DNA of 64,000 bases from positions 51,084-115,083 of IMG/VR virus record IMGVR_UViG_3300013426_000022. The stretch is one strand, 5' to 3'. The notes under the pieces are model-generated. The model was not told the DNA's origin. It made no database searches and saw only the letters and a program-made list of their open reading frames with translations. Numbering within the stretch: position 1 is the stretch's first letter; every line of letters starts with the position of its first letter. Source of the DNA: a virus (taxonomy: Duplodnaviria; Caudoviricetes). The position numbers were made by a program, and so were the translations under genes. This document shows, piece after piece, positions 10,119 through 34,700 of the stretch.

Positions 10119-12058
10119 TTAAAAACTTATTATATTTGAATAATGTGTAGTAGTTGAATTTGTTTTTATTGTATGAATTCCTAATGATTCTAGAACAGTG
10201 TTCATTTTACTTGTATTTGCATTTACTATACTATCATAATCTATATATGGTTTACACCATTCAGGTATACTGTGTATTTTTTTAGGTAATGCTAATACCA
10301 TTAATGCTTTCTTTCTAACAGCTTCAATTCTACTTTCAAATATTTTTTCTTTTATATTTTTATATTCAACTGGATATTTATCCTTCATATCTTCTATAGT
10401 TTCTAATGATGGTATATTCAATAATACTATATCTATTTGGTCAGGAAATTCTATAGTTTGGTCTGGATAAATAACATTCCATGCATATGCTCCCCTAAAT
10501 GATTGTTCTTGGAACGGTTCTTTATATGCTCCTTCTTGTTTAACCTTCATCGGACTTAAGAAAGTTTTCTCTCCTTTTGCTAATGATTCTTTGACTTTAT
10601 TTGCTAAATCATCAACACCGTTTATTATATTTTTAATAACAATATCATCTTCTTCTTTTTCGAGTATTTCTTTTGCTATTAAATTAGTTATAAATTCTCT
10701 AGTAAAATCATTACATGTTGATTTAAGATGATCAACACCTTTATTATCTATTCATATACATGACCTTCCCTTAATAATATTTTACTCATATAACGTTTTT
10801 TAGTTTCAAATAACAACATTTTAAAAAATAAGAATTCGTTTTTCATATTTAGAAAATGTCTATATTCTGGTAATATACCAGAATTATCAGCAAATTTCAT
10901 TAAATGTGAAGTAATTAATTTAGTTGCAACAAAACATATTGTATTTATAAAAATATAAACTAGATTCTTACTTCCTTTATTTAATATTTCTTTATCATCT
11001 TTAACAATTTCATTTAACATAAAATCTACCCAAGGACTCAATGTTAACATATTTGAATCCGTATCTATAGTACATACTGTATCTCTTGGGTCACAATTTA
11101 ATCTACCTATTCTATTAAAAGCAAAATAATTGTACACAACAAAATTATTCAAATAATCCCAAAAGTTTTCTAAATCTTTGTGTATATTATCTGGTATATC
11201 ATTTGGGTCTAAAAAATCATTTGTTTTACTAGTTAAATCAAATAACATTTTTCTTATTATAGGTAATTTACAAAATTCATATAAATTATTTTTATAATAA
11301 AGTTTATTCAATTCACTTTGAGATAACCCTTCTAATATATGCATGATAGGATATTCATAATTTTGTCTAAAATATATAAATTTTTTTCTTAATCTATAAA
11401 ATACATCTTCTATTGATTTATTATCTAAAAATGAATCATCTATTGTATATTTTTCATTTAATATATTATTAACATACACTGCAAAGTCATCATAATCTAT
11501 AAATTTAACATTATCAGAAAAGAAATTCTCAAAAGTACACATAGCTGTCGATATTAATGATTGACCAGTTGCAGTCGTAGAAACGGCACAATATAAATTA
11601 TAGAAAAATGTTATAGGAGAACCTGCTCCACCATAATCTGAATTCATCGCACGTTTTTTTGTATTTTGACCTATATCTTTTATTTTATATTCATATGAAT
11701 TTGGATTCAATGAATTTCTTTCATTTTTTAAATTATTTCTTTGTTCTTTTAATCCTATCAACATATGTATTGTAGGATTATATTCTTGATTTTGATTTTT
11801 GAATATTGTTCCATTTCCTGCTATTATAAAATTATTATCTTTAATCCATTGCATTAAAGATAATGCATCTACACGTTTAGTTTTTCTTAAATAATTATTA
11901 TCTAATGTTGCTATTGGAACTTTTATATTATCTTGTAATATTTTTACAAGATAATCTTTTATTTGTTTATCAGTTAAAGTTGGATATGTTAATTTTACTG
12001 TTTGAGCCATTTGTCTAATCCAATCTTCAATAAAATAATTATTCATATCTATTTCCAT
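10119..12058 (-). CDS. Split family-B DNA polymerase, C-terminal subunit; frameshift near 10749
   Basis: KKRAMNSDYG (motif B), TIDTDS (motif C) and KKRY; after HVYE* another frame reads IDNKGVDHLKSTC...EKTFLSP and runs into the 10119-10550 ORF. Confidence 0.85.
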
Positions 12059-12124
12059 ACAATCACCTCTTATTTTTTTGTAATATGATTTATAAAAAAA
12101 TATAACCCAGTGATTTTCACTGGG

Positions 12125-13114
12125 TTATATAAGTTTTCCTTCAGAACCAACATCTTGTTTTGTATAAAAACAAGGAATTGAATGATAAGTTCTTTCTTTT
12201 ATTTGATCTACAGTAAAATTAAAATGATCTATAACTACAACATCATCAAATATAATATCAGGTAGTTCGTCTTTTTCTAAACCAAAAGTATTCAATATCG
12301 TACAATAATCTCCTAATGTTTTTTGTATTTCATCAGCTATTTCTGAAGAATCAGTTAAAAATATAACTGCATTGCTACTATTAAGTCTATCAATATCCTT
12401 CCAGTTACTATATATATTTAAAATTAAATTTTTTTTATTATTTGAATATCTTATTATATCAGGATATTTATCATCTTTTAAAATATTTATAACATCTCCA
12501 TATTCTAATTCTTCAATATATTCTGTTTTTATTAGATTGAATTGTATAATATATTTACCTTTATTATAACTATCAGTGATATACATATCATCTTTCTTAA
12601 TTTTACATATTGCTGTTATTAAAAATCTTGTATATTGTCTAAATTGTAATCTTCCTGATAATTCAAAATATTCAGAAGATTTTACATGTTGCACATATAA
12701 TTTATCACTAAATCTATTTATTCCTATTATTTTATAAGTCATAGATACTATTTCATCTATTAATTGTATTGCGTTTTGTATTATATTATTTTGGTTTTCA
12801 TTTGAATTTAAAATATCATATAATCTTTTTATACATATGTCTTTATCCACATAATTCGCTATATAGCATTCAGTTAATATTAAACTCATACATTTTTGAT
12901 TTACAGCTGCTTGAATATTAAAACCATCATATAAATAATCTTTACATAATATATCTGAATACACTATACTAGAATCAACCATATCTTTTAGATTTTCCTT
13001 TGTAACTTCAATATCATTATCACTAAGCCAATCCAATATGTCTTTACTGTAATTAACTATCACTTTTTTACAATCTTCTATATTTATATTCATATTTATC
13101 ATTTTATATTTCAC
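12125..13114 (-). CDS. Hypothetical protein
   Basis: 329-aa ORF followed by a terminator hairpin. Confidence 0.65.
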   Translation of the reverse strand: MKYKMINMNINIEDCKKVIVNYSKDILDWLSDNDIEVTKENLKDMVDSSIVYSDILCKDYLYDGFNIQAAVNQKCMSLILTECYIANYVDKDICIKRLYDILNSNENQNNIIQNAIQLIDEIVSMTYKIIGINRFSDKLYVQHVKSSEYFELSGRLQFRQYTRFLITAICKIKKDDMYITDSYNKGKYIIQFNLIKTEYIEELEYGDVINILKDDKYPDIIRYSNNKKNLILNIYSNWKDIDRLNSSNAVIFLTDSSEIADEIQKTLGDYCTILNTFGLEKDELPDIIFDDVVVIDHFNFTVDQIKERTYHSIPCFYTKQDVGSEGKLI

Positions 13115-13331
13115 TCCTATCTATTATTTCATTTACATCAGAAATTATATAACCATTCTCATATAAATATTTATATTTAGGATCATTTAACATCATTTCT
13201 TCCATTTTTTTAAAAGCATCTTCTTCATTACATGCTTCTATTTCTATTTCTTCTTTACCGTCTATATAAGCATTATAATCATAATGAATTAGTATTACAT
13301 TATATTCACTCATAATATTAATCCTCCTCAT
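13104..13331 (-). CDS. Small hypothetical protein (IEAxxEEDA motif)
   Basis: ORF in operon; probable start MSEYNV. Confidence 0.6.
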   Translation of the reverse strand: MRRINIMSEYNVILIHYDYNAYIDGKEEIEIEACNEEDAFKKMEEMMLNDPKYKYLYENGYIISDVNEIIDRSEI

Positions 13332-13626
13332 AAATTTCAGAAAGTAACATCATATCCATTTCTTCTATGGATTCTTTTATATGATATATTCCATTTTCAT
13401 ATATTGTTACTTTTTCAAGCAACGCTTGATTTGTATTTTCTAATTCATCGTTTTTGTCTAACATTGAACAATATTTTCTATATAATATTCCATATTTATT
13501 TTTAAGCTCTTCTAATTCCTTATTTTTATCATCAATTATTTTATCTAATACTTTTATTCCAGTTTCTAATTCTTCTTTTTGAGCCATAAATTGTTGTATT
13601 ATTAAATTTGAAACAGTTCCACTCAT
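13318..13626 (-). CDS. Coiled-coil protein
   Basis: Heptad pattern; AGGAGG RBS; late promoter at 13651-13662. Confidence 0.65.
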   Translation of the reverse strand: MSGTVSNLIIQQFMAQKEELETGIKVLDKIIDDKNKELEELKNKYGILYRKYCSMLDKNDELENTNQALLEKVTIYENGIYHIKESIEEMDMMLLSEIYEED

Positions 13627-13720
13627 ATTTTTTACCTCCTATATTTTAATTACTTTTTTGTTAATTTCGAAATAAAAAAATATCTATAAGGAAAATCCTT
13701 ATAGATATTTATAAATCGTA

Positions 13721-14155
13721 TTAGTCATCTATTCTAGGAACATAGTCTTCTAATGCAACATCTAACATACATTCCTTTAACATTGTTTCTGAAACAATAA
13801 ATTCTTCATTTTGTTCTTCTTCAACTAAAGCAACATAAGACATAAATAAAGCACATAATACTTGACTCATATATTTGTCAAAATATAACGTTCCGTTTTT
13901 TATTTCACCCTTTATTTTTTTTGGTTCAGTATAATAATGTCCAATCAAATAATCTGCTAATATATCAGCTACACTATAAATATAATGCTTTCTCAGTCTA
14001 TATTTCACTTCTTCTTTTGTTATTAATCCTTGATTTACCAAAAATTCAATAAAACTATCACATACACATTTGTTACTATTTGGTATAAATTCCTTAACAC
14101 AGTCTGTAAATGAATACAGTTCTTTATCATTTATTATTTTTTTACTCATAAACAT
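13721..14155 (-). CDS. Hypothetical protein
   Basis: AGGAGG RBS; promoter at 14279-14290. Confidence 0.65.
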   Translation of the reverse strand: MFMSKKIINDKELYSFTDCVKEFIPNSNKCVCDSFIEFLVNQGLITKEEVKYRLRKHYIYSVADILADYLIGHYYTEPKKIKGEIKNGTLYFDKYMSQVLCALFMSYVALVEEEQNEEFIVSETMLKECMLDVALEDYVPRIDD

Positions 14156-14338
14156 ATCCTCCTTTATTAATATATGTGAAAATATAACCAGAATACATTT
14201 ATTTATATTCTGGTTATATTATAACAAGAGAAAAAAATATAATATTACAGGGTGATTAAAAAGCAAAATATACTTCTTTACTTAATTGTTTATAAAAAAA
14301 TAAATGGTATAGAATTCTATACCATTTATTTATAATTA

Positions 14339-15637
14339 TTATTCAAAAATACTATTCAAATGATTTAATAATTCATCATCTGATTTATCAGTATCATTAG
14401 CTAATTCTACTGTATTTGTATCTATTAAATTATCCATTTCTTTAATTGTTAGATTGTATAGTTGATTATAAGTTTTAGCTTTTTCTAATATTCCTGTATC
14501 TGCTAATATCCCCACAATCGTTCTCTGTAAATTTTCCTTATTTATTGATTTGTTGAAATCTTTATCGTATTTTTTCTTAACATCATTTACCAATCTGTTC
14601 ATCTTTTCTTGTTCTATTGGAAGATATACATACTCTTCATTGTCTATTTTTTCAGTTTTATAATTAGGTTTACCATCACCATTATCTTTAACTGTTTCTT
14701 TTACTCCTTTCTTTTCACCCTTATCAACAACGTTTTCTTGTTTATCTTCTTCTTTTACTTTGTTGTCAACTTTTTGTTTGTTATCTTTTATTATTTCTTT
14801 ATTTTCTTCTACAATATCTTTTGTTTTAGCTTCTGCTTTATATTTGTTTCTATATATTTCCACTAAAGATTTATTTTTAAATGCATCTTTTAACATTTGT
14901 ATTTCTCTTTCTTTATCAGAACATTCAATGTCTTTAGTTAAATCTTCTATAGCTTTATTTATTATTTCTTCATCTGATAAATCATTTACTAATTCTTCAT
15001 TATTCTTTTTAGCTTCTGATTTAGTTTTATTAGCTTTAGCTTGAGATTTTAATTTTTCAACATTCTTTTTAGCTTCTGTTTTTATTTTGTCAAATTCTTT
15101 TTTAGTTTCTTCTTCGATATCTTTAGTATTTTTCTTTAATGCTTCATTTATTATTTTTGTAGCATCATATTCAGAAACTTCAGGTATAACTTTTGCTTCA
15201 TCTGAATATTCGACAAAACCATTTTTCATTTTAGCTTTATTATCTAAAACTGTTTTAGTTTCTAGTTTAACTTCTTTTTCTGGTTCAATTTCTTCGACTT
15301 TAACATCAATTGCTTTTGTTTTATCTATTGATTCATCTTTAATATCGACTGTTTCAACTTCAACTTCTTTTTCTTCTGTTGTTTTTATTTTGTCTGTAAA
15401 TAAAGATTGAATATCATTTAACATATCTAATGTTGTATCTAAAGAATTATTGTCTATAGTATCAATAGTTTTATCATCAATATCAACTACTTCTTTTATA
15501 GCATTATCACTATATCCACAATCTTCTAGAACTCTATATCTGTTTTGATTTGATTTAATAACAACTGCCTCGTCATAAGGTTTTCTAGTAGTATTGTTGT
15601 AAACTCTTAAATTTCTTTTAACTTTTCTTAATAACAT
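14339..15637 (-). CDS. Lys/Glu-rich low-complexity early protein
   Basis: 432 aa, highly charged; follows promoter cassette copy 2; own terminator. Confidence 0.7.
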   Translation of the reverse strand: MLLRKVKRNLRVYNNTTRKPYDEAVVIKSNQNRYRVLEDCGYSDNAIKEVVDIDDKTIDTIDNNSLDTTLDMLNDIQSLFTDKIKTTEEKEVEVETVDIKDESIDKTKAIDVKVEEIEPEKEVKLETKTVLDNKAKMKNGFVEYSDEAKVIPEVSEYDATKIINEALKKNTKDIEEETKKEFDKIKTEAKKNVEKLKSQAKANKTKSEAKKNNEELVNDLSDEEIINKAIEDLTKDIECSDKEREIQMLKDAFKNKSLVEIYRNKYKAEAKTKDIVEENKEIIKDNKQKVDNKVKEEDKQENVVDKGEKKGVKETVKDNGDGKPNYKTEKIDNEEYVYLPIEQEKMNRLVNDVKKKYDKDFNKSINKENLQRTIVGILADTGILEKAKTYNQLYNLTIKEMDNLIDTNTVELANDTDKSDDELLNHLNSIFE

Positions 15638-15670
15638 AATATTACCTCCACGTAATTAAATATTTTTTAT

Positions 15671-15740
15671 TAAATAAATCATAAACCATTTTATAACTTA
15701 TTCACAGATATAATATAGTTATGAAATTCCACGAATTACA
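15671..15740 (-). promoter_or_regulatory. Repeated early-promoter plus 5' hairpin cassette, copy 2
   Basis: Matches 3895-3964; TATATTAT at 15710-15717. Confidence 0.75.
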
Positions 15741-15773
15741 TGGGAACATAGAAAAAAGAGATAAGGAATATCC

Positions 15774-16037
15774 TTATCTCTCATTTTCAGACCAATCTTC
15801 ATCAGGATCATATCCATGATTTCTTTCCCATTCTTCATGTTTTAATCTAGCATTTCTAACAGCAGGATTTCCGTTATTCATTGTACAACTAGCACCTTCC
15901 GTTACAAAAAAATAAGATAACCCATACTTCTTACCTAATTTCTGAACATCTTTACAAAATGCTGTAGCTTTTATTTTATCATCAGCATCTTTAATAATAC
16001 TTTCTAGTATCTCTGATATAGAATCATTATTTATCAT
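15774..16037 (-). CDS. Hypothetical protein
   Basis: 87 aa, AGGAG RBS. Confidence 0.65.
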   Translation of the reverse strand: MINNDSISEILESIIKDADDKIKATAFCKDVQKLGKKYGLSYFFVTEGASCTMNNGNPAVRNARLKHEEWERNHGYDPDEDWSENER

Positions 16038-16050
16038 ACCAAAACTCCTT

Positions 16051-16251
16051 TCATTTAATTGTTATTTTTATAAGTATATTATTCCTAAGATGTATTATAT
16101 AACTACCATTATCGTTATCATGTGTATAATATTTTACTATTTTATTATGTTGTAAATCATTAAATTCTTGTTTGGAGAGTAAATTATTATTAAAATTCAA
16201 TATATGAATTAATTCCTGTAATGATATATTTGAAAAGTTCATATAAATCAC
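16051..16251 (-). CDS. Small hypothetical protein
   Basis: AGGAGGTG RBS. Confidence 0.5.
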   Translation of the reverse strand: MIYMNFSNISLQELIHILNFNNNLLSKQEFNDLQHNKIVKYYTHDNDNGSYIIHLRNNILIKITIK

Positions 16252-16342
16252 CTCCTTATTATTATATTGTGTAAATAATATTGAAAGCTAATAAACAAGT
16301 TAATAAGATAATAAAAATTATAAAGAAAGGATTTGATAACAT

Positions 16343-16795
16343 ATGTTATTTGATAAAAACGGAGAAATAGTAGATAACTTTGAAAATGAGAATGAAGTTA
16401 CATCAATGATTATAGAAGCAGCTATAATGGATACATTTTCTAATGAAGAATTAGAGGATATAATGGAAAATAATATGTATGATTTAGATAAAGCATGCAA
16501 CGAAGGTATTCTTTGTGAAAGAACAATAGTTCGTTTAGATAAACATGCTAAAAAATCTAAAGCAGAAAAAATGGCTGAATTCCAATTAGCTAAAGAAAAA
16601 AATGATAGAGATTTCAAAAAATTAATGACTATTTGGAAATTAGAAAGATTCTTAGAAGAAAAAATTCATAAAAGATATGGAGCTCAAGCTAAAACATTAG
16701 CAAAACAAAAAATGAAAGCAGCTAAAAATACTAAATCTAAAGTTGTTGGTAAAGCTACAAATAAAGCACATAATCTTTTAAGTAGAAAAAAATAA
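16343..16795 (+). CDS. Probable internal head protein (acidic N-terminal propeptide, basic C-terminus)
   Basis: Late promoter at 16294-16305; acidic N-half with IIEA/LCE sites, Lys-rich C-half. Confidence 0.55.
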   Translation: MLFDKNGEIVDNFENENEVTSMIIEAAIMDTFSNEELEDIMENNMYDLDKACNEGILCERTIVRLDKHAKKSKAEKMAEFQLAKEKNDRDFKKLMTIWKLERFLEEKIHKRYGAQAKTLAKQKMKAAKNTKSKVVGKATNKAHNLLSRKK

Positions 16796-16797
16796 TA

Positions 16798-16837
16798 AAA
16801 TAAGAAGATATGGTAAATTTACCATATCTTCTTATTT
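16798..16837. terminator. Intrinsic terminator
   Basis: Perfect 20-bp inverted repeat. Confidence 0.8.
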
Positions 16838-16989
16838 AAAATATATATGCAAAGGAGAAGAGAGTATGAATTTATCTCTCTTATTATATTGTTGTATAAA
16901 TTATTTTTTATACATTTTTCTCTTATTGATATGTATTGAGTAAAATTAAAAAATAATTCATAAAATTTAATACATACAAACAACTCCGT

Positions 16990-17115
16990 AAGGAGAAGGA
17001 GCAAGATATAATAAAGGACGGAATTTAAAATGGAGTCCGAACAAGGAGTTGTTAAATATAAATTAAAGTATGGAAAGGAAGATATGTTCATTAGCATTAT
17101 AGCTAATGAACTTTG
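16990..17115 (+). ncRNA. Candidate CsrB/RsmZ-like sRNA with eight ANGGA motifs
   Basis: AACAA-CTCCG-TA promoter at 16979-16990; eight ANGGA within 16990-17079; 10-bp terminal hairpin 17086-17111 followed by TTT. Confidence 0.5.
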
Positions 17116-17131
17116 TAAAACCCAAATTAAT

Positions 17132-17145
17132 CAATTATATATTAT
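17132..17145 (+). promoter_or_regulatory. Early promoter of the RNAP subunit gene
   Basis: CAATTATATATTAT, identical to the other early copies. Confidence 0.7.
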
Positions 17146-17206
17146 ATAATAGAATATAAATCATTATATAACAATAAAATATATATTTAAAGGAGGTAAA
17201 TATTAT

Positions 17207-19246
17207 ATGAAACAAGATTTTACTTTTGATCTCAATGAATATCTACAAAAAGAAAATGAACTCTATGATTATTTAGAAGAACGTTATGGAGGAGATAAAA
17301 TATTTGATTTAAATTCAATAATACCTGATAGAGAATTATTTAAATCAATATATGATGATATTTATTATATATTAGAGGAAGGATTTGAAATTGAGAGAAT
17401 AAGAAAATTCCCTGTTAAAGTATTCTTTAACAAAAAAGAGGGAATGATAGAAATGGAATTAAGACACTTATTAACTAATATGATTTTTCTAAATGCTTTT
17501 GTTGAATTAGGAGTGGATATAGAACTAAGTATAAAACATTTAATTGATGCTAGAAAAATAAATAATAAACTTATAAAAAAATATATAGATGATAATATAA
17601 TAATACCATATATAGATGAATTTACAAAGACAGAAGAAGATTTTATAAAACTAAATGAAGTAATTCATAATATAATTTATAGATTAAACAGAATACCTAA
17701 AGATTTTAATGTTTTAATAGGTTCAACAATAAGTTTAGAAGATTCATTTATTAAATTAGCAAATGAAAATGAAAGATTTAATGAAATTATACACACTAAA
17801 ATACCTGATGACATGCAACCAAAAGAAGTAGAAAATTATTTAGATAATTTAATGCATGAAGAAGTTGAAATAATGAAAAATAATGAAAATTGTTTACAAG
17901 ATGTTGTAGAATCTGGAACAGGTATTAAAATAGAACAATTGAGAGAATGTTCTATATCGGGAGGATTAAAATCAGACTTATTAGGTAATACAATACCATT
18001 ACCTATAAATTCTAATTTTATAGTTGGAGGATTAAATAATATTAGAGATTATTATTTAGATGCTCAAGCAGCAAGAAAACCTCTTATTGCTAATAAAGAA
18101 AAAATGGGTGATAGTGGTCATATGTCATTATTATTAAAACTATCTTCAGCAGGTATTTATATAAATAATGAACATGATTGTCATACTCATCATACGGTTA
18201 GATTATATATAGAAAATGAAAAATTCTTAAGAAAAGTTTCAGGAAGATATTATAGACTTGAAGGACAACGAAATTTTAAGATATTGAAATCGACTGATAC
18301 ACATTTAATAGGAAGACATATTTTATTAAGAGATCCTACTAAATGTGCTAGTGAATATGGAGTATGTCATACTTGTTATGGAAGTATGAGTAAAGTAAAT
18401 AAATTTATGGATGTTGGATTATTAGGTTCAACATTAATAACGAGACCATTAGGTCAAAATATATTATCTACTAAACATTTGAATAAAACTGTTTCACAAT
18501 TAATAACATTTAACGCATCATTTGATAAATTCTTTAAATTAGACGCAAATCAAATTAGATTACCACATGATACCGAAACTGAAACTGAATTACAATATTA
18601 TATGTTACAATTAGATAATTTAATATTATTGGATGAATTAGCAGATAATGAAAGATTCAATAAATTTATACAATATATCAAAATAGTAGATATACGAACA
18701 GGTCAATTATATGAAATCGTTGAAGATGATGGGAAAGAATTATTTATTCATCCAGATTTTGATGATTTCTTAAATGAATATAATATGAGCGAAGAAGGAA
18801 GTTATGTGATACCATTAGAAGATTTAACAGATATGTATTTATTCAGTATAAATATCCAAAATAATGAAATGACAAAACCATTGAAAGATACAGACAATTT
18901 ATTAAAAGGTAGTTATTTTGGAACACATTTAATTACTATTGAACAGATGGAACAAAAATTTATTGAATTAATGATAGAATCAGATATACAAATAAATTCT
19001 ATTCATGCAGCAATAATGTTAAGAAATTTAGTTAGAGAAAAAGATAACTTCTTGAAACGTCCTGATTTTAGAAAGATCTTTGTGGATTATGTTGTATTAG
19101 GATATTCAGCAGCATTAGAAAATAATCCAGCTATAACTACTAGTTTAGCTTATGATTATTTAAAGAAACAATTGGGATCTTATACGACATTTATTAAAAA
19201 CGATAGAGGACCATTAGACTTATTATTCAAGAAGACTTTATCATAA
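17207..19246 (+). CDS. Multisubunit RNA polymerase beta'-like C-terminal subunit (probably non-virion RNAP)
   Basis: Bridge-helix-like YYLDAQAARKPL...DSGH, zinc site C...GVCHTCYG, trigger-loop-like PLGQNILSTKH; early promoter; next to an SF2 helicase as in phiKZ-like phages. Confidence 0.85.
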   Translation: MKQDFTFDLNEYLQKENELYDYLEERYGGDKIFDLNSIIPDRELFKSIYDDIYYILEEGFEIERIRKFPVKVFFNKKEGMIEMELRHLLTNMIFLNAFVELGVDIELSIKHLIDARKINNKLIKKYIDDNIIIPYIDEFTKTEEDFIKLNEVIHNIIYRLNRIPKDFNVLIGSTISLEDSFIKLANENERFNEIIHTKIPDDMQPKEVENYLDNLMHEEVEIMKNNENCLQDVVESGTGIKIEQLRECSISGGLKSDLLGNTIPLPINSNFIVGGLNNIRDYYLDAQAARKPLIANKEKMGDSGHMSLLLKLSSAGIYINNEHDCHTHHTVRLYIENEKFLRKVSGRYYRLEGQRNFKILKSTDTHLIGRHILLRDPTKCASEYGVCHTCYGSMSKVNKFMDVGLLGSTLITRPLGQNILSTKHLNKTVSQLITFNASFDKFFKLDANQIRLPHDTETETELQYYMLQLDNLILLDELADNERFNKFIQYIKIVDIRTGQLYEIVEDDGKELFIHPDFDDFLNEYNMSEEGSYVIPLEDLTDMYLFSINIQNNEMTKPLKDTDNLLKGSYFGTHLITIEQMEQKFIELMIESDIQINSIHAAIMLRNLVREKDNFLKRPDFRKIFVDYVVLGYSAALENNPAITTSLAYDYLKKQLGSYTTFIKNDRGPLDLLFKKTLS

Positions 19247-19247
19247 A

Positions 19248-19286
19248 AAAATAAAGAGATAACCAGTTTGGTTATCTCTTTATTTT
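19248..19286. terminator. Bidirectional terminator between convergent genes
   Basis: 18-bp inverted repeat. Confidence 0.8.
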
Positions 19287-19299
19287 ATTTTTTTATTTA

Positions 19300-19512
19300 T
19301 TAATCATAATCTTCTTCTTCCATATCTGTCATTCTAACAAATGTCATTATGGAATAATGGCACACATGATTACCAAAAGGAACTGAAGTAAGTTTTGTAT
19401 CTACTAAATCAGCATAATTTGTATATCTTTTTACAATTTTTTTCATTTCTCCTGCTAATGATAAAATTGAAGTTGATTCACATGATTCTATAAAATATTG
19501 TTTTTGTTGCAT
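19300..19512 (-). CDS. Small hypothetical protein, paralog of 19626-19841
   Basis: FxIxCE.T....L..E......Y.....L.D.K......G....HY...TF shared. Confidence 0.7.
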   Translation of the reverse strand: MQQKQYFIESCESTSILSLAGEMKKIVKRYTNYADLVDTKLTSVPFGNHVCHYSIMTFVRMTDMEEEDYD

Positions 19513-19625
19513 ATTAACGTACCTCCAATAAATATTATATTATATATTATGTTTACTTTGATAAATTATAAGGAACATAGAAAAAAATAAGAGTAGAAGT
19601 TATATCTACTCTTAATGATTAAAAA

Positions 19626-19841
19626 CTATTTGTTTATTTTTTTGAATGTCAGTAAACCATAATGATGAACAATGTTTCCAACTGAACCTATTAATATTGA
19701 ATTGAATTTAACATCGATTAATTCATAATTTTCTTTATATTTATTAATATAAGAATTTATTTCAGTAGTTAATTCAGTCATACCTGTAGCTTCACAGTTT
19801 ATAGTAAACATATACCCGTAATCATAATTTCTTTTTTTCAT
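19626..19841 (-). CDS. Small early protein (start MKKRNY)
   Basis: GGAGG RBS; follows promoter cassette copy 3. Confidence 0.7.
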   Translation of the reverse strand: MKKRNYDYGYMFTINCEATGMTELTTEINSYINKYKENYELIDVKFNSILIGSVGNIVHHYGLLTFKKINK

Positions 19842-19870
19842 AACATTACCTCCAAATAATATAAAAAGAT

Positions 19871-19938
19871 ATAAGACATAAACCATTTTTATATCTTATT
19901 CACAGTTATAATATAGTATTGAAATCTCATGAATTACA
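19871..19938 (-). promoter_or_regulatory. Repeated early-promoter plus 5' hairpin cassette, copy 3
   Basis: Matches the other two copies; TATATTAT at 19908-19915. Confidence 0.75.
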
Positions 19939-19991
19939 TTATGCTATTTAAATCATCATTTAACAATATTTTAAAAAAGGAGGTAAAATAT

Positions 19992-21419
19992 ATGGCTAGT
20001 AAAATAATATTAAACAACTCATCTATAAAAGTATATGATTATAAACCAGGAGATTGTGAAGAACTAGAAAAAAGTTTATCTGTATGGAATAGTAATTATT
20101 ATAGATGGGAACCTAAAGGTATGAATTATGATGAGGATAATCATATATTAATTCTTCCAAGAGGTATAGATGTTGAATAACTAAAATCTAAATTAAGATG
20201 TCCTGTAATTACTAATAAAAATTATAATGATTATGAAAAAACTAATTTTAAGTTAAAAGTTGAACCTAGAAATGATATACAGAAAAAATCAATATCTTTT
20301 CTTGTAGGAACAGATAAATTTAAGAAAAGTTATGGTTATTCACAATTATCATTAAATTTAGATACGGGTGATGGTAAAACGTATTGTGTAATAGCATCTT
20401 TATGTTTGTTAAAATGTAAAGCTATAATCATATCACATACAGAAAATATAAAAGAACAATGGTTAACATCAATTCAAAAATTTACTAATATAGATAAACG
20501 AAGAATTTTAAATATAGCAGGAACTAAAGTCTTAGAAAAATTTGATGATTCTTCAGACTATGATATATATTTAGTTAATCATAGAACTATTCATGAATAT
20601 GCTAAAAAACATAGTTGGGATAGTTTAAATGACTTATTTAAAGAAATGAAAATAGGAATAAAAGTATTTGATGAAGCTCATATAGAATTTAGTTCAATAT
20701 TAAATATAGATTTTCATACGAATGTTTTTAAAACATTTTATTTAACAGCAACATTCGAAAGAACTGATAGAGGTGAAGATAGAGTATTTAAATTATGTTT
20801 TAAAAATATAGCTAAATATGGTTATGAAACAAGAGGAGAAAAAAGGAAACATATTAAATATATAGCAGTATTATTTAATTCAAAACCAGATATAGAAGCA
20901 AAAATGTCTATTAGAGGACCTAAAGGTTTTGATAGATACGCTTATATGGATTATGAATTATCCAATGGAATGATATTTGAAGTTATTGAATATGTAATGG
21001 AAAAATTTGAAAATATAGACGGGAAATGTTTAGTATTGTCATCTAAAATAGAAAGTAGTGAGATTTTATCAGAAAAAATTAAAGAATGGTATCCAAAAAA
21101 AGATATTAGAATATATCATTCTAAATTAAGTAAAAAAGAAAAAGAAAACTATAAAGAAGCTGATATAATAAGTACAACTCCACAATCTTGTGGAACAGGT
21201 TTTGATTTACCAGGTTTAAGATATAATATAATGTGTGAACCTTATAATGCTCATATAACAGCAGAACAAGTATGTGGTAGATTAAGAGAAATACCTGAAC
21301 AGTATACGTTTCATATTGAACTTATAGATATTGGTTTTCCAAAAGTAAAAGAAATGTATAAGAAAAGATTAAGTGTTTTTAAAAAGAAATGCTATGGAGT
21401 GTATGAATTAAATTATTAG
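19992..21419 (+). CDS. SF2 (DEAH-like) helicase with an in-frame TAA at 20178-20180
   Basis: Frame continues past the stop to Walker A LDTGDGKT, then DEAH, TAT, GTGFD and QVCGRLR; AGGAGG RBS at ATG 19992. Confidence 0.85.
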
Positions 21420-31700: not shown

Positions 31701-34700
31701 TGACAAAGTTTTTATTAAAGGACAGTTTGTAAATTTTATATCATATAATGTTGCTATTGAATAATTATCCATCATATCATCAAAACCTAAATCTGTCATT
31801 TTAAACATATTTTTTATATCTATTTCACGTATTTTATTAAATCCTTGGAAATATAATTCAGTTATATCTAATGAATTATCTATAATTAATGTTTGAACAT
31901 TACTCATAGCTCTAAATACATTGCCATCATCATATAATCCTGAATATAAATCCAATTTTTTAATATTTAAGCAATTTGATAATTGAACATTTGATAATTG
32001 TTGTAGATTTATAAATCGCCTATCTCCTTTTTCTATTAAAGCATAATTTACTATATTTGATGGTAATGATATTGGTCTTACGGTTCTTATACAAATCATA
32101 CAATATGCCGCATTAGAAGGTGGAGTGACTTCTATTATTTTTTCCACAGCATGAACAGCAGTATCAGCTATACTAGCTTTAGCTATGAATTTTTTGTCGG
32201 AATCAAAATAATATATTTCAGTAGTAGAACCATTTACAGGAGCTATTATTTCTTTAACTGTAGGTGTTATTTCCCATAAATTATCTTCTGATAGTGTATT
32301 TGATCCCGTATCTCTTATTATTGCATAAGTTCCAGTAGAAGATCCTTTAGTAAATCCTCCAGATGTAGTGTAACTTATAACAGTATTTGCTTTAACAGTA
32401 ACATTTTCTAATCCAGTCCATATATTTTGATATCCATAAGGCAAACCGACTGTTTTTAAATTAGTTTGATGACTTAATACTATATTTTGTATAGTTTCAG
32501 GATAATATATTTCTTCTAAGTTACCACCATCAGTATCAGATTTAATAGCTGTTAATTTAGTTCCACGAACATCGATTTTTCTCAAGTTAGTACAAGAACT
32601 CACATCCATTATTTTAGCAACATCTAGTTCACCAAATGTTGAACAATCCTTGAAACTTACTGATTTTAAATAAGTATTTTTTGATAAATCAGCTTGTTTA
32701 AGTTTCACGGCTTTTTCACATTTTAATTCAACTAATTTAGTTGCTTCTCCTAATAATAATGATTCAGGTCCCATATCAGTTAAATCACCAATTCTCTTAA
32801 GATTATTTGCACAGTAAATAATTATTTCATTATCGGTATCATTTACCATTTGTCTTTTAAATATTACTTTCTCATTAAACCCTACACGCTTTGTTTCATA
32901 CGTATTCTTTCTCCAACATATAGTAACATATTGAGGGCAATATGTTTCTATTTCAAATTGCAACCACCAATGATGTTGTTCGGTTTTATCATCAATTTTA
33001 ATTACTTCATAGTCAATCCATTCAGGTCTAGCCGCACGGACAGTTATGTTTTCTTTAGTATATGGTGAGTTATATTGTAAAAATAAACTATCTACATATT
33101 GGAATCTATTATATAACCATCTTATTAAATGATCTTTATTATTACCATGTAATCTATTTATGTTTGTTGTACCTTGGCTTATATATTTCGTATATTGATC
33201 GTTATTATATGCTATTTCTGGTAACGTATCTATTTGATCTGTTATTAAATATTTATAAAGATTTTCATATGTGTATGATCCTTCTCTCATCATTTTAAAT
33301 TCATCAAATAATATATCTTGCATGAAATTATTAAGTTTTACCCACATTTGAGATGCTGAACAGTTATATACATTTGGTTGAGAAGGTTCTATATCAGATT
33401 CAAATACATTATAACCAGAGTTATCTAATCCCATACTAGAGTCCATATCATAGAATCCAAACCACCAAATATCGTCACCATACATATTAATCATACAGTT
33501 TTTGGCAAAGTTATCTATCATACCCATTGTCATGACATTTAAATAATATCTACAAGCAGATCTAGGATTAAAATATTTTGGTCCTTCTTTATTGAAAGTT
33601 TCTTTATCTTTAGTATCATTAATAAATTTAACAAATCGTGCCAATGATAAGATAGCATAATCTTTATAGGTACCAATAACGTTTCCCGTATGAGGTATTT
33701 CTAAATAATCATAATATTTAGTTACATCATATTCGCCAGTTTCATCTTCAAATGCATCTTCATCATAAGCTATTTCAAAGTCTGCTAATATTTTAGCATA
33801 TATATCTTCAACATTGTTGTGGTCCCATGTTACATAAAAAGCACCTGCTGATGAATCAGAGTTTGCTTTTATTTCCCAACGAACCATATCAGGAATAACC
33901 TCAAAACCTAAAGATTTAGTACAAGATTTATCTAAATTAAAATTAAATATTCCTATCCATTTACCGTTAATATATAATTGACATAAAAAACCATTAATAG
34001 TTTCTCTAGTTTTTGGATCTTTTTGTTTTGCAGGATTTGGTATATCTGCAAATACTAAATCATTAACTATCTTAGCAGTACAAGTGTTTCTACAATGTGA
34101 TGAATCCATATAGTCTGCTTTTAAACAAAATGTATTTTCAGCATATCCAGTTCCATCTCTTTGACTATACATATCTATTTTCTTTTTTGTATATTTTGAT
34201 ATAGCTTTAAAATCTTCAGGTATTATTATATTATCTTCTTTATCTACTATTTGACCTTCTTTATCTATTCTATAATCATATAATTTCATTTTATAGTTTT
34301 TGATAGGATAACCTAAAGAAGATGTACCTTGATAAGATGTTAATGCTAAATAATCAAATGATGGTCCATATTTTTTTACATCAGGAGATACATATGTTAC
34401 TTGTATCCATTGTTTATTATCTTTAGTCATAGGACCAACACTACCAACAGGACTATCTTTAAAATATACTGTAGGTATGTCTTGATTTATTGTGACATAG
34501 TTTTTATCATATTTAGCTTTTTGTTCTGATATATTATCTATATCAGCCATTAAATTTTGTAATACTTCCTCATGTTCCAAAGCTCTGTTATATATTAGAA
34601 TAGTTTTTATTTTATTATTACCGAATATTTTTTTAGCTTTATCTGTATTTATTAGTATTTTATTCGAATGTTTTATACTTTCGTATACTTTATTACCACC

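Follow-up and report, generated by a model that had tools for sequence, protein, structure and literature searches.

The segment from 16922 to 17116 of the window (the whole 64-kb stretch of DNA analysed here) is, in our judgement, probably one paralogue of a family of structured, non-coding RNAs that stand alone, had not been described before and are carried by uncultured, AT-rich, AR9-like jumbo phages. The presence of a conserved, multi-copy structured unit with neither an Rfam match nor a conserved reading frame is real; its identity as a conserved structured RNA unit is highly likely, and we regard it as very probably an RNA gene, the RNA being deduced from the promoter motif, the terminator and the covariation. 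A previous sequence-only reading of this DNA had noted a late promoter, eight ANGGA motifs and a terminator in the intergenic gap, and had proposed an RNA that titrates the host protein CsrA. All features and coordinates that it gave were confirmed in the window sequence, and the discrete non-coding unit that it described, with a late-promoter motif and a terminator, proved to be conserved far above the flanking DNA.

The window forms the right-hand 64 kb of a 115-kb IMG/VR record that is about 49% complete and has a G+C content of 24%. The next gene downstream of the window copy encodes a subunit of the non-virion RNA polymerase whose best cultured relatives are those of AR9 and PBS1 (29% identity), and the gene order around it is the order of AR9 g152–g156. 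Comparison of window positions 10748–21419 with L171 also showed DNA polymerase, virion protein, polymerase beta' piece and helicase in the AR9 g152–g156 order, with a protein identity of only about 29%. The features of the window copy and its downstream neighbourhood are as follows.

16922–16978, plus strand: upstream block (CTTATTG..TATGTAT, two CATAAAAT-like repeats, and ATACATAC directly 5' of the promoter motif), conserved in 42 distinct copies
16979–16990, plus strand: late-promoter motif AACA-N6-TA, with A 16990 as the start predicted by the AR9 rule; in every full-length copy examined
16984–16995, plus strand: P1a, a local hairpin (CTCC, loop GTAA, GGAG) whose arms covary between clades
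17016–17038, plus strand: P2, an inner hairpin pairing GGAC (17016–17019) with GTCC (17035–17038), with compensatory change
17030–17149, plus strand: 39-aa ORF, judged not to be a gene
17045–17053, plus strand: 3' arm of P1 (GGAGTTGTT), an inverted copy of 16979–16987; 9–14 bp in all clades
17072–17081, plus strand: purine block GGAAAGGAAG, predicted to be single-stranded and Shine-Dalgarno-like; the most conserved unpaired segment, with one copy that lacks GGA
17086–17116, plus strand: P3, a terminator-like hairpin (arms 17086–17095 and 17102–17111) followed by TTTGT, with many compensatory changes and a T-run after P3 in most copies
17114–17152, plus strand: early promoter of the polymerase-subunit gene (TGTAAAA box; 13-mer at 17133–17145; start G 17152), fitting the window-phage and AR9 early consensus; outside the element
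17170–17181, plus strand: second late-promoter motif, 37 nt before the ATG at 17207; outside the element
17207–19246, plus strand: gene for the non-virion RNA polymerase beta' C-terminal subunit, homologue of AR9 g154

Distribution of the unit and its genomic context

Relatives of the window phage were retrieved via the polymerase protein, and a 17-nt scan was then made for repeats of the stretch. In the relatives, conservation of the gap starts at about 16922 and extends to the terminator, and the intergenic DNA on either side could not be aligned. Relatives with a polymerase subunit 89, 78, 68, 67, 64 and 61–62% identical have the unit in the syntenic gap; it was found neither in the corresponding gap of AR9 nor in those of relatives with a 59% or 38–42% identical subunit. 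The scan showed the stretch repeated three to four times per related genome, and the 61–62% relatives carry it in the same gap and in other places; overall, near-complete genomes of relatives with a subunit 61–89% identical hold two to four copies each. Searches with a covariance model identified a single copy in the window's half-genome record, four, two and three copies in records that are 100, 97 and 94% complete, respectively, and four in a record that is 80% complete, all of them full length and in a single orientation. The same model identified 31 further copies in ENA and JGI metagenome contigs, and the family amounts to more than 40 distinct copies with clear helices. A loose gapped pattern applied to a viral collection returned mostly chance matches and was left out of these results. 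Rfam gave no match at E values up to 10 in the window region and up to 0.1 in seven relatives, and a nucleotide search of cultured-phage records gave no match; a search for the host by way of the endolysin (Amidase_2 plus SH3_3) led to no informative genome.

The copies adjoin unrelated genes, including those for the polymerase subunit, a DNA-binding protein together with a phosphoesterase, a virion protein and unknowns, and these insertion contexts are themselves conserved between clades. Separate promoters, and often a further terminator, lie between a copy and the next gene, which is the layout of a stand-alone unit rather than of a leader. The polymerase gene of the window phage likewise has its own signals, given the early promoter and the second late motif that lie between it and the unit. 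We had considered the possibility that each copy precedes a late-polymerase subunit gene, and ruled it out on the basis of the unrelated neighbours. In G004 and G005, the copies are located about 43–46 kb apart (for example at 44.9, 89.8, 132.8 and 179.0 kb), and their orientation seems to follow that of the neighbouring genes in the individual copies checked. The metagenome contigs L180, L184 and L206 start within the unit, as would happen if assembly were interrupted at the repeat.

The late-promoter consensus of AR9 is AACA-N6-T[A/G] (PMC5312081), and this motif was found 25–50 nt 5' of many start codons in the genome of the window phage. The 12-mer at 16979–16990, described previously as a copy of the phage's late promoter, fits it in the form AACA-N6-TA. 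A sequence logo of 31 late-promoter sites of the window phage carries information only at AACAA and TAA, with no conservation 5' of AACA in the ordinary late promoters. A near-invariant early motif, related to that of AR9 in a comparison with the published AR9 early consensus (PMC5312081), is also frequent in the window phage. The extended consensus of these early promoters consists of a TGTAAAAG-like box, about 10 nt, TTC, the AR9-related 13-mer, 6 nt and G, and many of them are nearly palindromic. The combination of an early and a late promoter before the non-virion polymerase beta' gene (window 17133–17181) is, in AR9, the mark of the continuously expressed class. Several other repeats were observed in or near transcription signals. 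An 18-bp two-way terminator is located 3' of the virion-protein gene (window 16798–16837), followed by a second hairpin at 16852–16880, which in the 89% relative stays paired owing to a compensatory change. At about 32857–32878 of G000:C1, beyond the window, two late-promoter motifs of opposite strand overlap at the start sites, forming an AACAA..TTGTT inverted repeat between two divergent genes. In two relatives with a 38–40% identical subunit (L212:1465–1482 and L213:1458–1476), a G+C-containing palindrome, GTCC..GGAC, is found in the late motif directly 5' of the polymerase gene, with its centre at the predicted start.

Architecture of the unit

Conservation begins about 57 nt upstream of the promoter motif in the 42 distinct copies. 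The upstream block at 16922–16978 may contain a promoter of an unrecognised kind or a site for a regulator, or may be the leader at the 5' end of a longer RNA; no recognisable promoter was found in it, and its sigma-70-like match was no better than in shuffled sequence. The promoter motif has a double role, in that its bases 16979–16987 also serve as the 5' arm of helix P1. Every copy retains the TA of the motif, whether these two bases lie in a loop, as in some clades, or in a stem, as in others, which argues that the motif is a working promoter.

Four helices can be drawn through the unit, and their sequences differ between clades while the pairing is retained. Among 22 copies, P1 has seven invariant pairs and two covarying pairs, which change from CG to UA in 10/22 and from CG to AU in 6/22; no one-sided change occurs at the covarying positions, and none of 500 shuffles reached the score. 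The outermost P1 pair is lost in two clades. In minimum-energy folds that included the two bases before AACAAC, P1 closes a three-way junction in 12 of the 17 copies. P1 and P1a are mutually exclusive. The P1a stem has 4 bp in the window copy and 5–10 bp elsewhere, with loops that are mostly G-N-N-A; its arms read CTTC/GAAG in L214, and stems of 7–10 bp are present in the 61–62% relatives. The predicted late start sits within the P1a loop. P2 changes from GGAC/GTCC to GAAC/GTTC between paralogues within the genome of one relative and is replaced by other stems in other clades; among 10 copies, a strict script found GA..GA flanks and two covarying outer pairs. The terminator, a hairpin of 10 bp (17086–17095 with 17102–17111) followed by TTTGT, is as the sequence-only reading had described it. 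That reading had also proposed an alignment of the syntenic gap to look for covariation, and the relatives indeed showed compensatory changes in the helices.

We use X for the segment right after AACAAC in the conserved motif AACAAC-X-TA, X' for its copy just downstream, and X'' for the inverted copy. The three change together, even among copies in one genome. All four helices were essentially pure Watson-Crick in the 22 copies; one G-T and one A-C were found among 632 pairs, and such wobble pairs are too rare to show selection on a particular strand or at the RNA level. The fold z-scores are about −4. The number of independent clades is only about six or seven, and the events behind the covariation are accordingly few. 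A further helix upstream, between sequence at about −56 and the bases before AACAAC, reaches 13–14 bp in some copies and is absent in others; it was left out of the structure.

Candidate functions and the 5' end of the putative transcript

From 5' to 3', the unit would consist of the conserved upstream block, the late-promoter motif, a two-state 5' domain, the single-stranded purine block and the intrinsic-terminator hairpin. In the local state of the 5' domain, segment X (promoter positions −6 to −1) would pair with the adjacent X' to form P1a, and in the long-range state, X together with AACAAC would pair with X'' about 55 nt downstream to form P1, closing a junction with P2. We envisage an abundant RNA that folds in a manner tied to the late promoter and late polymerase of the phage itself. 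The coupling would come about either by the use of two 5' ends, one for a closed and one for an open form, or by the RNA annealing again to the promoter, and the purine block and the terminator would present a trans-acting surface. A link of the unit to late transcription is a tentative suggestion. We are more doubtful of the specific form that we would give it, namely an autoregulatory device for the uracil-reading late RNA polymerase, in which an inverted copy of the promoter is present in the transcript or in the displaced DNA strand, and the competing local hairpin sets whether the promoter bases are paired or exposed. With one 5' end, the RNA could be a decoy for the late polymerase comparable to 6S RNA, and with the other, it could anneal to the promoter's non-template strand and keep the promoter open, as an R-loop that reinforces itself or primes replication.

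The late polymerase of AR9 reads uracils in the template strand and can initiate on single-stranded DNA (PMC9209446, PMC7598289), which makes both the promoter-mimic and the pair-back models conceivable. Nearly all copies examined retain AGTTGT, which reads CGTTGTT in the metagenome copy L207. Two clades have A or G as the counterpart of the essential −11 uracil, and conservation is absent at the +1 position. The literature that we searched describes no regulatory RNA from jumbo phages of the AR9/PBS1 type. Such phages depend on two of their own polymerases for the entire programme, and a conserved multi-copy RNA unit whose core helix is made from the late promoter would offer a new way into the control of late transcription in them.

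The 5' end of the transcript bears on all of these models. If transcription starts at 16990, as the AR9 rule predicts, the RNA would lack the 5' arms of both P1 and P1a; the inverted repeats, with their covariation, could then function in DNA or be a product of template-switch correction at quasi-palindromes. The retained TA speaks for a working promoter at the motif, whereas the conserved upstream block, which has no counterpart at ordinary late promoters, points in the opposite direction. Possibilities that would accommodate the repeats are a longer RNA that starts a few bases before 16979 from an unrecognised promoter, the use of both starts, and repeats that act in DNA or in an RNA:DNA hybrid.

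Apart from an autoregulatory device, two other explanations deserve consideration, and each of them has a low probability in our assessment. One is that the RNA acts in trans as a decoy or riboregulator by means of the purine block, as a Shine-Dalgarno mimic for the 16S 3' end or the 30S subunit or as the site of another RNA-binding protein, with the 5' domain merely tuning stability or accessibility. The purine block is the best-conserved unpaired segment and lies directly before the terminator, as seed regions often do, and by our own reading GGAAAGGAAG is able to pair with 7–8 bases of the 3' tail of a Firmicute-type 16S rRNA. However, the block degenerates in some copies, for example in the one without GGA, most copies have no start codon at a usable distance after it, and no complementary target of the purine block was found in the 115 kb of phage DNA. 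The decoy explanation would also leave unexplained why the promoter motif is built into covarying helices.

The other is a device at the level of DNA or of an RNA:DNA hybrid, in which the inverted repeats near the late promoter would function while the DNA is single-stranded or supercoiled. Such a device could take the form of a fold-back promoter, of a transcript that pairs with the non-template strand and holds the promoter open, or of an R-loop replication origin, and the low probability stated above applies to these options jointly. It would agree with the finding that P1 and P1a both have their 5' arms before the predicted start, with the almost purely Watson-Crick helices, with the purine-rich tract in the transcript and with the dispersal of several copies around the genome, and the AR9 late polymerase is of a kind that reads the template strand and initiates on single-stranded DNA (PMC9209446, PMC7598289). 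On the other hand, the arms of P1 are 55–70 nt apart, which is unfavourable for cruciform extrusion, and palindromes centred on the start are not a general property of the late promoters of this phage, being present in 42% of them compared to 32% of random windows. The T-run on the plus strand after P3 and the G-N-N-A loops fit an RNA.

A cis-acting leader, attenuator or insulator for the downstream polymerase-subunit gene is quite improbable. The unit is indeed located directly 5' of this gene in seven lineages and ends in a terminator, and its two mutually exclusive folds recall those of attenuators. Nevertheless, the other copies precede unrelated early and late genes, and the polymerase gene has its own early and late promoters 3' of the terminator. 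In addition, no pairing was found that would join the switch to P3, and the junction sequences vary between clades, unlike those of a ligand pocket.

The GGA cluster and reading frames of the window copy

The feature that first drew attention to the unit is its cluster of GGA motifs. As reported by the sequence-only reading, eight ANGGA motifs occur within 90 nt (16990–17079), starting at 16990, 16996, 17014, 17018, 17030, 17043, 17070 and 17075, and every one of the eight GGA of the window copy is part of an ANGGA. The enrichment over the surrounding DNA was also borne out. Background densities are 0.22 and 0.41 ANGGA per 100 nt on the plus and minus strands, respectively, and the maximum elsewhere in the 115-kb record is four on either strand. 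A comparison with a shuffled background, which the same reading had suggested, gave genome-wide ANGGA maxima of 3–5 in 100 first-order Markov genomes, compared to the eight observed. With plain GGA the cluster of eight was only slightly above other windows (6 and 7), and a count of eight was reached in 1 of 100 simulated genomes.

A late RNA of about 125 nt that titrates host CsrA through the eight ANGGA sites would fit this genome-wide outlier, and the minimum-energy fold of the 16990–17116 RNA leaves most of the ANGGA unpaired; the family is also multi-copy, as Csr/Rsm sponges often are. The comparison with relatives argues strongly against it. Across the family, the number of GGA per copy varies from 0 to 8, as does that of ANGGA, with the window copy at the top of the range. 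In the closest IMG/VR relative, whose polymerase subunit is 89% identical, the syntenic copy has five GGA and four ANGGA, and copies in the 61–62% relatives have 0–4 GGA and 0–3 ANGGA, one of them being without any. Three of the eight GGA sites in the window copy (16992, 17016 and 17045) are helix arms, which read GAAG, AAGAA or AATAA in other clades, three are lineage-specific, and two are in the purine block, the sole place that keeps GGA in most copies. The hairpin AACAA-GGAG-TTGTT (17040–17053), in whose loop one motif had been placed, is present and forms part of the minimum-energy fold of the window RNA. It is absent in relatives and thus specific to the window copy, where it borrows its 3' arm from helix P1, so that the only GGAG-in-loop hairpin is not a conserved one. 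The expected identity with the CsrB/Rsm type was not borne out either, given that no Rfam family, including CsrB/Rsm, was matched.

Because the GGA motifs are not conserved in the other copies, which the sequence-only reading had itself named as an outcome that would speak against its proposal, a CsrA sponge is unlikely at the family level, and as a function of the window element we rate it as very improbable. The window element is not a conserved CsrA-binding array, and its GGA richness is in part a by-product of the CTCC/GGAG and GGAC/GTCC helix arms; the GGA-rich window copy could still bind CsrA incidentally. A striking motif count in a single copy may thus reflect the composition of helices.

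No ORF on either strand is conserved across the copies. The 39-aa ORF at 17030–17149 does exist, as had been pointed out, and is not the conserved element; in the 89% relative, a stop follows its fifth codon, and the 78% relatives lack its ATG. A 92-aa ORF on the minus strand spans the element (window 16819–17097); it is not a gene. Its first residues look conserved because the nucleotides of the purine block and the terminator are conserved, and it is broken by frame-shifting indels elsewhere; in the distant clades, ORF remnants are 14–16 codons long or none are left. Although both ORFs exist in the window, a small protein gene on either strand can be dismissed, in view of the early stops, absent start codons, frame-breaking indels and distant-clade remnants in relatives and of the lack of a Pfam match for either ORF.

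Comparison with known systems

Sponges of the CsrB/RsmZ type carry many GGA motifs, about 7–22 per RNA. The unit resembles CsrB/CsrC and RsmX/Y/Z in being small, terminator-ended, multi-copy and non-coding, and its window copy is dense in ANGGA. It differs from them in that its GGA repeats vary from none to eight per copy and are not placed in conserved hairpin loops, and in that its conserved features are four helices and a promoter-like motif, with no Rfam match.

PeSL elements are promoter-stem-loop cassettes repeated in the genomes of T4-type phages. Like them, the unit is a repeated regulatory cassette that combines a phage promoter with a hairpin and is scattered between genes, but it is three times longer, has four covarying helices, and is inserted at sites that are syntenic across clades rather than shuffled.

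The F-plasmid Frpo, the sso of rolling-circle plasmids and the hairpin promoters of phage N4 work as folded single-strand DNA. The unit shares with these the location of promoter bases inside covarying inverted repeats, and belongs to phages whose polymerase family can start on single-stranded DNA. Those systems act on known single-stranded DNA, whereas no such stage is known for the unit, which has the ordinary layout of an RNA gene with a terminator.

6S RNA is a mimic of an open promoter that binds RNA polymerase. The likeness of the unit to 6S RNA lies in its core helix, which repeats in inverted form positions −11 to −1 of its own late promoter, and in the recognition of single-strand uracils by the AR9 late polymerase, which suggests that an RNA could offer them (as we infer from PMC9209446). 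In contrast to 6S RNA, the unit does not have a long irregular hairpin with a central bubble or an Rfam 6S match, and the putative mimic of the −11 base is changed in two clades.

Compared to an ordinary late transcription unit of the AR9 type, finally, the element has the same AACA-N6-TA motif followed by A and the same kind of intrinsic terminator. It is set apart from such units, and from AR9 itself with its syntenic gap free of any such element, by encoding no protein, by the 57 nt conserved upstream of its promoter motif, and by an invariant CT at promoter positions −6/−5.
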